Shown here: positions 52,786-57,485 of the stretch, in pieces
Numbering within the stretch: position 1 is the stretch's first letter
Layout: the number at the start of each line of letters is the position of its first letter
DNA from: Marsupella aquatica
Taxonomy: Eukaryota > Plantae > Marchantiophyta
Length of the DNA stretch: 64,000 nucleotides
Reading direction: 5' to 3'
Assembly (NCBI GenBank): GCA_973895155.1
Contig: OZ316898.1
Coordinates: 13,794,330 to 13,858,329, forward strand
The notes under the pieces: generated by a model
Databases searched by the model: none
Told to the model about the DNA's origin: nothing
Seen by the model: only the letters and a program-made list of their open reading frames with translations
Position numbers and translations under genes: made by a program

Positions 52786-55700
52786 TGTGGTGCGTCCCAT
52801 GGCTCCCTAAACCCCAGAAACCCCCCTTCACAAGCCGATTCCCACAGGTTTCGCGCTTAGCGAGGCCGTTTTCGCGGCTTAGTGGCATGGGATGCTGCTA
52901 ACTTCCTTCTACTACTACTATTAACATTTTACACACATATACTGGACAGATCCTTCATCGGGTCATGAGATACGTAGCCGGCCTAATCTAGGCCTTCCCT
53001 TGTCTTCCCCTCCTTCTTGTTAGGTATGATCCCCAATAGGCTTGGTTAAGCCGCTAAGACCTCTCTCAGCTCGACACATCCAACTCTCACTCCCTTGCTT
53101 ACTTTCCTTCCTCTATTAGTTGATGTGGGCACTCTTCACACAAGTTAATGCAACACACAAATAGCAAAATGACTCCTTCTGACTGAGTCATACCATGCAC
53201 TTGTCATACAAACAGTACATCTCATACACAAGCTCTGCGAACTAAGCTGTGAGGCCAACTCTATTCAGCTCTTAGGCATGAGGAAACATGAATATACACA
53301 AGGGTCACTGTATGACTAACCTAGAGCTTCTCTTACTACTTGATCCCAGCCCGGCTGGTGCAACTAAAAACTTGCTAAAGAAGAGGCCCTAAGCTCCCCG
53401 CTGCCCAGGTACTTATCCTGGTAGTGGATCCGCCTAATTCTTTGCAGCGTAAGCCTAATCTACCTAACTGAATCTACCTAATTGAATCTACCTATGTACA
53501 GCGAGGCAGGAGTACAAGTGTTGCTCTTACCAGTGGAACCGCCATCCCACTAAGCTAAGTGTCAGGGCCGCCTCCTGGTCCTGATCCTAATCCTAAACTT
53601 AGAGATCTGAGCCCGCCCTGCCCACTCACGCCTTCTCCCTCCACGTCCGCCCTCCTTGAAAGGAGCGGCCCTCCACCACCGTCATGGCAGCGGTGTCTGT
53701 TCCTTAGTGGACGCCCCCAACGCTTCCTCCTCAGCCACTGCCGTAGGTTCGTTCTCTGACAGATTACCTGCCCTTGACTGAGTCAACTCTCCATCGGCCT
53801 GACTGGGTCCACCCCCGGCATCGGCTTCAACAACAGCCTCGGCTGCGGCCTCCCCTGCACACTCAAGTGGCGGATTGGGTACCTCGGCTTCATTACCGAG
53901 TATCCTGGCCTCGGCTTTGTCATCCCCTTCTTCTAGGGTAGTTGGATACTCTGCCGTAACCCTGCCTGAGGTCGGTGCTGGGTTTACCTCCTTGGTGCCC
54001 ACGGCCTGTGGAGCCGTATTAGTCCTTGACCCTGAAGGTTTCCGCTTCTTCTTCTTTTCTGGTTCGGCAGCTGGCCCCTTCCCCTTCCCACTTACTTTCG
54101 GCACTGGTGCAAATGGCGCGGCTTGTCCTTCGGCCAGTACCACTCCTAGTAACTTAGTGGCCTCAATTTGAGTTGGCCCTGATGAAGCCAAGCACTTAAA
54201 TACTGCAGCTTGTTTCTTCAGCCGCTCCGTTTGGTTGTCGGCTCGTCGTTGTAAGTTCTCTAGCTTCCGCGTGTTTTCCTCCAACTCTTTCTGCACTTCG
54301 TCCAGGTCCTTGCGCGCCTCCTCCAGCTCCTTCTGGGCTTCCTCCAATTCCTGTTTAAACGTAGCTCTCTCCTCCCGGGTCGCTCTTAACTCCTTGTCAA
54401 GCTCTGCAATGATGACAGACTCCATCTGGTTCATCTTGGCGTAAGTCTGATCGAGCATATTGTCCTTCTCACGCAGGTCGGCTTTGAAGCTGGCCGTCAG
54501 GGACGCAAGCTCCTGCTGCAGCGCAATAATCCCTTGATAGGATTTCCCTAACTCGGCCTCCTTCTGCTCAAGGGCTCCGCGGATAACCTCGAGCTCCCCC
54601 TTCAATGTCCTTTCCCTTCTCTGGGTCTCCGCCATGGCCCGGTTGTTGGTTGTTATGTGGGCCTCCTTTGCATCCCTCAGCTCTCGCTTCCACTTCTCCC
54701 GCTCCTTGATCGCATCGGCCAACTCTCCTTGGGTTCGAGTCAGTTTATTCTCGATAATCCGATTATCAGACTGTGCGGTATCCAATTGGCCCTGCATGAT
54801 AGTTAGCTCATGCCGCTTAATCCGCAGCTCATCTTGGGCTTTCTTGGCCGCCCTCAGGTCTTTGATTTCGGCTTCCCTTGCCCTAAGCCGACGGATGACC
54901 TCGTCCTTCTTGCTTCTTTCCAAAGCCACCGCTTCTTCTAATTGGCGCTTCTCCAACATCTCCCTCTGAAAAAAGGGTCCTTGCTCCAACTCCTCCCCAA
55001 AGATGCTGAGCGCCAGCTCTCCACACATTTCCCCGTACTCCATGGCTCTATTTTTAGCATAGGTGGAGGAAGTAGAAGTCATCGGCATCATCCACCGCAG
55101 CCTTTGTTCCCAAGCCGCCTTGCGGATCTCTTCTATTGTGGCTGGAGGGATGCTTCATTTTTCTGCAAGCCGCTTGATGTCTTCTGGCCATTCTCCTCCT
55201 GGTAAATCCTTTTCTCTAGCCAGGGCTGCCTCCTCTTCCTCCCTGATTCGCTCCTGAAATTCCTGCACCGTCTGTTTTATGCCGTCAAAGCTCGGGGGAG
55301 CGACATCTGGTGGGGGAGACTCGGGGCTGCTCTGCTGGCTCGGGTCTCCTCAAACTACTCTTGGGAGCGTGGGGATGAACCGGCCACAGGTCCTTACTCC
55401 TGGAACATGATGATCCGACCCGTAGCCGGAGTCATCATTGCTGTAGTCCTCTACCGCCTCCTCCTCGGCTTGGACTACCGGCTTCTCCCGCTGTTCTCCT
55501 GGTTTTGTCATGAACACGGCTTCACCTCTCACCGGTCTTGGTTCCTCCTCCGGCTTCCGTGTTGATCTCTTGTTCTCCTTGTCGTGGCCGGGAGCTACGG
55601 CCTGCTTCTCCTCGGCTTCGGGACTTGAGGCTCCTACATACATCCGGACTCCCGGCTCGTGTTCCGGCCTCCTTCTCTCCTTGACCCCAGTAAAGGGGTT

Positions 55701-57485
55701 TTCCCTTGTAAGTCGGCTTAGGCCTACCTCTGGAGCAGTGTCCTGCATTGGTGCCGTTGCCATTGCCGTTCTCTTTTCCTTCTCCAGCAATTTTAGCAGA
55801 TTCTGCATGCCTGGTTGCTGCATCGGCAAGTCTTCCGTCCTTGGCCTAAACACCTACTCGATTGTAGGAATGTCGGGCGGGTTGGGTTTCTCCGTTGCCG
55901 GCCTCTGTTCCGGAACCTCCTCTGGTGCCCTTGCCTGTAGGAAGTACCGGGGCAAAGGTCTTACTTCGGGCATACCGGCATAATAGCGGTACGTGATAGC
56001 CAAGCCGGGACACGCTTCCCTTGCCGATCACCAGCTGTTCCTCCTTCAAGATCTTCTTTAGTTGAGTGAGGAGGTAACCATTGTAGTCCCGGCTTGGGTC
56101 TGGCCTCTCTGCCAGATAGACCTGTGCCTTGTCGATCTCTGGTCTCGGCCAGTTGCAATGCATGGTCACCCGCAAGAAATCGATCATCTCTCCTATATGC
56201 GGGTTGGTGCAGGTGTTTCGGAAGAAGCCATTCTTTGTTGAAGGCCCGGGAAACGACCGGAACTCCTTGTCTGGCAAAGTCTTCCTGGTATCTACCTTGG
56301 TCTTATTGCCCTTCGGCAAGCCAAACACTTCGGCAATCACCTGGGGAGTGAGATAGAAATCCTTCCCATACACCCTTGTGGAATTGGTCTCGGACTCCCA
56401 TGATCCCACGAATTCTAGTAAGTCTGAATCCGGCACCTCCGGCTTCAGCCACGGTAACTTTACAAAGGCTTCCAAGCCGGATCCGGCCATGAAGCCCTGG
56501 TATTTCCGAGTCTGCATAGCAGTAAAGCATGCATCCTCCTCCCGTGCAAAGTATAATTGCACTTCCTCGGGGAGAATCGCCGCCCAGCCTTTCCAAGTGT
56601 CATCTCTTGTTAGAATGGCGTTGATGGGGTCAACCTCCTCCTCCTCGGCTTCTCTCTGCCTCCTGCTCTGCTGTTCTGCTGGCTTCTTTGGTGCCGCCGA
56701 CCTCGTTCTTTTTGCCGGGGTGGCCTCTTCATTGTTGTTGCCCTTCCTCTTCATCTCGGCTGCCGTGGATGTCTCTCCTAGCACGGTTGCCTTTGTCCAC
56801 CCCTCCGTGCTACCCTTCAATTCCTAGTGTATGTCATTGCAGCGTTTGATGGCTTTGCGGATGCCGACGACTCTGTCATCGCAAAACAGCAGGTCGTCTA
56901 GCTCGTTGCTAGTAGGCGTCCACAGGAATTCAGCCTTGATGAGTTCTCCTCCTAAGAAGGCAGCTTTCTGCAGCTCCCACAATCGAGCGAGCTCCTGCCG
57001 TTCTCGAGCTGCTCTCTCCGATTCTTCATCCTCGTAAGTCCCAATGTACTCAATTGCCCGTTCGAACAGGCATCCCCAAAAATGTGCCGCTTGATTGACG
57101 TTGCTCATACCCTTCTCGAGTTGATAGTCGGTATCTGTTCCCACCCTGAGCGCTTGCCTAAGCAGTTGACAGTAGTTGGCCGCCCGTAGTCGCCTGCCCA
57201 GTTCGTGTTTGCAAATGAGCCACTATTCCTCGCGAGCGGTCCTTACCCCTCTCCTCCTCTGGTTCTCCCTCCCGTTGGTTACCCCTAGCCGCCGGCACTT
57301 AGCGTGCCCTAACCCTAATCGTGTTCTCTCCCCTGGCGTCCTTACTTCCGGCCTCGGCTTGGGTTCCATAGTCACCCTTAATTGTTTATATTTTCCTTAT
57401 TTATGTAACTATACTAAGGTGTTTCTAGGGTACACTTCCCTTTTCCCCTTAAAACTAGCCCAGTGATTCCTGGCTAGGCATCACA
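52786..57485 (-). mobile_element. 4,700-bp TG...CA element with 5-bp TSD: putative giant solo LTR containing a long ORF
   Basis: Termini TGTGGTGC/GCATCACA (7 of 8 inverted); AGTTT at 52781-52785 and 57486-57490; sharp GC contrast with both flanks. No terminal direct repeats, PBS or gag/pol motifs seen. Confidence 0.8.
53682..57369 (-). pseudogene. Single ancestral ORF of ~1,230 codons: transposon accessory-type domain + acidic linker + long coiled coil
   Basis: ATG at 57369 is in frame with the 106-aa and 324-aa track ORFs across TAGs at 57223 and 56824. After one frameshift near 56000, one frame runs through stops at 55854, 55350 and 55155 into the 469-aa coiled-coil ORF. Confidence 0.8.

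Follow-up and report, generated by a model that had tools for sequence, protein, structure and literature searches.

A 4.7-kb insertion in Marsupella aquatica DNA as a likely solo long terminal repeat carrying a large, decayed gene

Results

The element and its insertion site

Our analysis concerns a 64,000-nucleotide stretch of Marsupella aquatica DNA (contig OZ316898.1, positions 13,794,330 to 13,858,329), referred to here as the window, and a 4,700-bp element within it that begins with TG and ends with CA. A single decayed open reading frame (ORF) takes up 3.7 of its 4.7 kb (80% of the unit). The features of the element, with coordinates counted from the first base of the window, are as follows.

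52786-57485, no strand assigned: TG...CA element of a high-copy family, 4,700 bp, likely a solo long terminal repeat (LTR)
52781-52785, no strand assigned: left AGTTT, one copy of a 5-bp target-site duplication, within a longer junction repeat of 9 bp (52777-52785)
57486-57490, no strand assigned: right AGTTT, second copy of the 5-bp duplication, read from the sequence
52786-52793, plus strand: left terminus TGTGGTGC, family-wide, with many different flanks
57478-57485, minus strand: right terminus, read on the minus strand as TGTGATGC; inverted match to the left terminus at 7 of 8 positions
53682-57369, minus strand: decayed ORF of about 1,229 codons (ATG at 57369, end at 53682)
52786-53681, no strand assigned: non-coding arm of 896 bp downstream of the ORF, which would hold the 3' untranslated region of the gene and the regulatory parts of the LTR
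52786-52905, plus strand: terminal hairpin, -44 kcal/mol, z -2.9 (2 of 200 shuffles; best of four folds)
57435-57450, minus strand: 16-nt purine run followed by TG, resembling a polypurine tract (PPT), at 36-51 nt from the right end; possibly a chance occurrence

The junctions read AGTTT followed by TGTGGTGC at 52786, and GCATCACA followed by AGTTT at 57485. The element differs from its surroundings in GC content (53.6% vs 38.6% and 33.7% in the two flanks). TG...CA ends with a 5-bp duplication are not beyond chance on their own, since 31 such pairs occur in the same window (spacing of 0.2-15 kb, a 5-bp duplication without mismatch, and ends that match in inverted orientation at 7 or more of 8 positions). 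Stronger evidence came from public sequencing data. Parts of the stretch were present in eight runs (six studies, five coded organisms), and four of them (X1 to X4), which contain 43-58% of its words, were used for the contig analysis; they represent at most four samples and two studies. No RNA data set was among the runs listed, which carries no information on expression. In all four runs an empty-site contig joins position 52776 directly to 57482, skipping 4,705 bases, that is, 4,700 plus 5. Because of these contigs and the sharp left terminus of a high-copy family described below, the 4.7-kb segment is confirmed as a true insertion, with its ends where the original prediction had placed them. 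The depth of the empty-site contig (150-473) is several-fold above that of long low-depth contigs. The target is therefore repetitive too, so that the empty-site contig may stem from a paralogue rather than an allele. No contig was found for the filled left junction, although contigs cannot show absence; in X1-X3 the flank depth equals that of the empty-site contig.

The 5-bp duplication AGTTT that had been predicted is exact, but the repeat at the junctions is longer than this. Bases 52777-52785 are identical to 57482-57490 over 9 bp because the four bases preceding the left AGTTT are the same as the last four bases of the element. Another copy of the family provides a weak hint as to the right end: it aligns over 24 bases from 57462 and would end at 57485, the short side being unspecified (joint 57396-57462).

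The neighborhood of the element has features of its own. A second insertion of 419 bp (52303-52721) lies in the same target repeat, 65 bp to the left of the element, and is missing from the empty-site contig in all four runs. It starts with an 83-bp piece of 23S ribosomal RNA (rRNA; 52302-52384) that is 82% identical to the E. coli chromosomal 23S and on which Rfam is silent; this piece is probably plastid-derived filler DNA. Summed depth over 52248-52695 is 54,000-213,000 in X1 and X3 vs 1,900-9,900 in X2 and X4 (two coded organisms), which suggests a repeat amplified in one of these organisms. Inverted repeat copies, 72-75% identical, flank the element on both sides (50687-50868 and 59262-59442).

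A high-copy family with a common left terminus

Summed contig depth, which we do not equate with copy number, steps at 52786 from 167-473 in the flank to 4e4-4.5e5 in the element. The four runs contain 35, 11, 19 and 12 contigs that depart from the left terminus (77 in total), and their flanks disagree with one another (agreement 0.37-0.45). Because of this depth step and the unlike flanks of the departing contigs, the left end is identified as a terminus common to a high-copy family that has inserted at many sites. The prediction of further copies with these ends was thus borne out for the left terminus. Copies are also nested, with the left terminus sitting inside other copies (joints 53615-52786 and 55379-52786). 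The exact 29-nt left terminus had no match in metagenome contigs.

Every bin of the 4.7 kb is covered by family sequence. In a by-eye comparison, none of the 21 loose ends listed inside the element led into unrelated sequence, two of them being too short or repetitive to judge, and the joints listed within the element all had depths below 480. These loose-end and joint results come from the 24 of 3,588 loose ends and 15 of 172 joints that were listed. Based on these three observations, the 4.7-kb unit seems to be the normal structure of the family, and no sign of an internal-deletion origin was seen.

As the original prediction stated, the element has neither gag/pol nor an internal LTR pair: no gag/pol signature or motif was found, and a second copy of either end is absent from the interior (best match 10 bp). 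The latter is the expected look of a single LTR. TRIM, LARD and TR-GAG structures are therefore excluded, as there is no direct repeat between the element's ends, and a deletion derivative would need two deletions. The predicted lack of a PPT was less secure, given the PPT-like run inside the right end, which is one of 15 purine runs of at least 12 nt on the minus strand. A CA-TGG motif lying 13 nt in from the left end was considered as a primer-binding site (PBS) but dismissed as too short and misplaced.

A large, decayed gene fills most of the element

A single ancestral ORF of about 3.7 kb, beginning 116 bp inside one end, had been predicted, and its start at 57369 is indeed the 117th base of the minus strand. 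The frame is interrupted by five stops (TAG at 57225, 56826 and 55856; TGA at 55352 and 55157) and by a single frameshift near 55940, which was located by homology reaching residue 472 of the first piece and by an indel at 55939 in other copies. Stop counts favor the coding frame on both sides of the frameshift: 2 before it vs 14-24 in the other five frames, and 4 after it (3 internal and the terminal stop) vs 14-35. In three loose ends that were read in frame by eye, differences from the window are mostly synonymous or conservative; this is not a ratio of non-synonymous to synonymous rates (dN/dS), but it is a hint of selection on the protein. The rest of the window contained neither another copy of the ORF nor a relative. 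The predicted protein consists of two globular regions, nuclear-localization-like motifs and a long coiled coil, with a proline- and charge-rich linker between the globular domain and the heptad region.

56827-57222, minus strand: N-terminal helical region, with three distant relatives (P0005, P0006 and P0010) and no known family
55942-56630, minus strand: conserved globular domain of about 225 amino acids, 41% identical to P0002; Athila-ORF1/Transposase_32-like as a weak lead only
54180-55030, minus strand: predicted coiled coil of about 280 amino acids, proline-free, with E/K/R/Q-rich heptads; a KKKKRK basic cluster comes after it, at 54056

A phmmer search against 1.84 billion representatives returned 19 relatives at an expect value (E) <=0.001 (best 3.7e-38). 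The domain at about residues 245-472 is matched by 16 of these and the N-terminal region by the other 3, and one relative, P0026, repeats the layout of domain, proline-rich linker and coiled coil. Because of these relatives and this common layout, the ORF is, judging from sequence comparison, a real, conserved and large gene. Two organism names occur among the 19, both Calypogeia fissa (a liverwort), and the members of one relative cluster are labeled solely "hypothetical protein". These names point to a non-seed plant, likely a liverwort, as the host. A word-index search of proteins of 470-2,000 amino acids gave no new relatives. The same kind of search found nothing with alignment A1, for which the length window (1,303-3,720 amino acids) was ill-chosen, and with alignment A3 its sole match was already a member of the query alignment. 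The globular domain was confirmed in none of 4 candidates from viral contigs and P0008 in none of 103 from metagenome contigs. A PDB sequence search gave no match (best E 0.22).

The profiles PF20167 (Transposase_32) and PF03078 (ATHILA) did not match at E<=1 with the query or at E<=0.1 with the query plus its 19 relatives. The C-terminal piece had Pfam matches that all stayed below the cut-off (best E 0.0012) and were dismissed as generic coiled-coil matches. Clusters of PF20167 and PF03078 were ranked 4 and 5 in the ESM Atlas with a score of 0.83, a lead only and within the range of shuffled proteins; the N-terminal region gave no usable match there. Structure models were poor, with a mean predicted local distance difference test (pLDDT) of 54 and 43 and a best Z of 3.2 for the first model, and Foldseek with this low-confidence model found no match at E<=0.001. 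No transmembrane helix was detected in the two ORF pieces, and since their maximum 19-residue hydropathy is 0.92 and 0.97, the protein is not env-like. Based on the basic clusters, the long coiled coil and the lack of a transmembrane helix, we predict by analogy that the protein is a nuclear, oligomerizing accessory factor. Its resemblance to plant Ty3/gypsy accessory proteins is a weak lead, and we suggest only tentatively that it may influence how the element itself is transcribed or silenced, a role proposed for Athila/Tat accessory proteins.

Discussion

A probable solo LTR with a gene inside

Taken together, the single-LTR look of the element, the high copy number of its family and its conserved gene are consistent with a solo LTR of a large, probably Ty3/gypsy, retrotransposon with an accessory gene inside its LTR, and we consider this the probable explanation. 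A complete element (LTR, gag-pol, LTR) would have integrated with duplication of five target bases; the insertion itself is observed, while the integrase is presumed. Its two long 4.7-kb LTRs would then have recombined, with loss of gag-pol and retention of one LTR and its gene. The remaining copy would finally have decayed, as is evident from its five stops and one frameshift. The LTR status, the recombination and the lineage of the element are what we infer here; the gypsy-like assignment in particular is weakly suggested by length and the weak protein lead.

Excerpts from the published literature provide precedents for several of these properties. Plant LTRs of up to ~5 kb and extra ORFs with PMD, Transposase_28 and Athila ORF-1 domains are described there (PMC6317226), as are LTRs of 1.9-6.5 kb in Ogre (PMC6431247) and of 1.1-4.4 kb in Del/Tekay (PMC4029996). 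Long-LTR families leave many solo copies, for example 429 solo and 162 complete for Retrosat2 (PMC3485330), and Athila, Tat, Tekay and Phygy are present in liverworts (PMC12885004, PMC13468544). As far as these excerpts go, solo LTRs of long-LTR Ty3/gypsy families (Ogre; Tekay/Del, such as Retrosat2) are similar to our element in their TG...CA ends, 5-bp duplication, length of 3-6 kb, lack of an internal repeat and high copy number. The match of its ends to the Retrosat2 att motif is partial, at best 7 of 10 by eye. In contrast to Ogre ORF1 and Retrosat2 ORF0, which sit internally, the one gene here makes up 3.7 of the 4.7 kb. The accessory ORFs of Athila, Tat/Retand and Ogre (PF03078, PF20167, PF04195 and PF10536) share with it a globular domain, a low-complexity linker, an SMC-like coiled coil and basic clusters; they differ in position, being placed upstream of gag or between pol and the 3' LTR, and neither the protein described here nor any of its 19 relatives matches these families at E<=0.1. 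Genes located in or overlapping U3, such as sag of mouse mammary tumor virus (MMTV), belong to vertebrate retroviruses and have much shorter ORFs. They resemble the proposed arrangement in that the gene lies within the terminal repeat, is doubled in each element and is retained in solo LTRs, with no sequence relation. The excerpted literature also relates PF20167 to PF03078 (PMC11728184).

Several observations weigh against a gene-bearing solo LTR. In the contigs of the four runs, copies paired around gag-pol were not seen, nor was a PBS or PPT beside either end. Likewise, no shared PBS- or PPT-type flank was found at the left terminus, where agreement equals that of random flanks, and in simulations a flank shared by half of the contigs was improbable in all four runs (P<=0.05, with an unweighted majority assumed). 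A shared fraction of 0.2 was allowed (P 0.13-0.60). One fifth is approximately what a Retrosat2-like ratio of solo to complete copies (429:162) would give, and contigs in the repeat are short; their assembly probably hides shared-flank variants, which weakens the flank test. The left non-coding arm has ~1.2-2.7x the mean summed depth of the ORF (averaged bins), mildly favoring shorter LTRs. The 5-bp reading of the duplication depends on the right end being CA, as the repeat shared by the two junctions spans 9 bp; the terminus directly confirmed as a family end is the left one. No Pfam family exceeded the cut-off for the protein, and its two models provide no usable fold, leaving its function to analogy. 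Finally, published plant accessory ORFs are internal (PMC7264820; likewise in excerpts of PMC6317226, PMC11963269 and PMC3485330). Most of the additional ORFs in plants are situated downstream of pol and ahead of the 3' LTR, and they include nuclear and SMC-like examples whose function is unknown (PMC7264820).

Alternative explanations

The absence of a shared left flank among the 77 contigs, the lack of any gag/pol link in our searches and the single gene that makes up 80% of the unit would also fit a non-autonomous gene cassette. According to this explanation, the whole element has 8-bp integrase-type ends, was never a terminal repeat and is moved in trans by an integrase-like transposase, with Ginger/TDD-like cut-and-paste elements as a model. 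Such integrase transposons have terminal inverted repeats (TIRs) of tens of bp or more, whereas the inverted match here stops after 8 bp and no longer TIRs are present. Reverse transcription would also be impossible for such a cassette, as the established LTR mechanism needs terminal redundancy, and the flank test that favors it is biased and fits an ordinary solo-rich family. We know of no plant precedent, although no dedicated search was made. The choice between a solo LTR and an integrase-moved cassette rests on precedent, and on that basis we regard the cassette as unlikely, if still the alternative to be taken most seriously. In a more specific form, the unit would be a novel type of mobile element in plants rather than a remnant: a cassette with a single gene, bounded by integrase-type ends and lacking terminal repeats, would have been spread to very high copy number by an integrase in trans while its coiled-coil protein shielded the family from silencing; this we find less likely again.

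The usual location of such ORFs in the internal region, the greater summed depth of the left arm (depth not being copy number) and the PPT-like run followed by TG near the right end point instead to an internal-deletion derivative, with shorter LTRs and an Athila-, Tat- or Ogre-like internal accessory ORF. However, since neither terminus is repeated internally, two separate deletions would be required. Moreover, no unrelated loose end or joint of high depth occurs inside the element among those listed, and the conserved ORF domain attains a depth equal to that of the left arm. We therefore consider a deletion derivative improbable. The 9-bp repeat at this one site, whose four extra matching bases have a chance near 0.5%, would be explained if the element were a 4,696-bp, TIR-less, non-autonomous Mutator-like element of the VANDAL type with a 9-bp duplication and a VANC/PMD-like anti-silencing gene. 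In excerpts from the literature, VANC and Athila-domain proteins both combine a globular domain with a coiled coil through which they are predicted to oligomerize, and VANC and MAIN/PMD are likewise coiled-coil accessory proteins encoded by elements (PMC13547354). Our protein nevertheless does not match VANC, MAIN or PMD by sequence or, with its poor model, by fold, and VANC is described in the same excerpts as dicot-specific (PMC13547354). With a Mutator-like origin, the inverted CACA at the right junction would be a coincidence of equal size, and a further 3 of 4 inverted matches would be unexplained. In addition, the family terminus begins with TG, the other copy that aligns from 57462 would reach exactly 57485 (a weak point), and no transposase is present. 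A Mutator-like origin is accordingly the least credible of these alternatives.

Implications

If the element is indeed a gene-bearing solo LTR, its layout would be one for which we found no description in plants. An exact-phrase search of the open-access literature found no report of an ORF inside a plant LTR, which does not establish its absence from print. Plant LTRs are regarded as lacking coding capacity, and a solo LTR is viewed as a dead end. With a gene inside the LTR, each element would have two copies of the gene and each solo-LTR event would leave one, so removal of the element would spare the gene. A gene of ~1,200 residues would also explain some very long LTRs, and it would mislead annotation, as such ORFs resemble host genes. 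The family would further provide a naturally occurring means of testing what Ty3/gypsy accessory proteins do, and this in a plant lineage (probably the liverworts) with little-studied elements.

Other features of the window

No transfer RNA or Rfam matches were found in the window. A full-length, young Ty1/copia element lies on the minus strand at 7444-13456; its LTRs of ~308 bp are 99% identical over 300 bp, its target-site duplication is ATATA, and it has a PBS-like site next to the LTR at 13149 together with gag, integrase and reverse transcriptase domains. To its right, tandem arrays with units of ~103 bp and ~125 bp occupy 13743-14557. Decayed, GC-rich reading frames at 3928-6273 (two pieces, no Pfam match at E<=0.01) are presumably derived from a non-LTR retrotransposon, going by resemblance of their motifs. 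An ORF of 271 amino acids on the minus strand (25351-26163) contains 48-bp (16-residue) tandem repeats and has no Pfam match. An exon-like piece at 16071-16496 encodes an Agenet domain, and an intact, single-frame F-box/kelch gene is located at 44669-45967.

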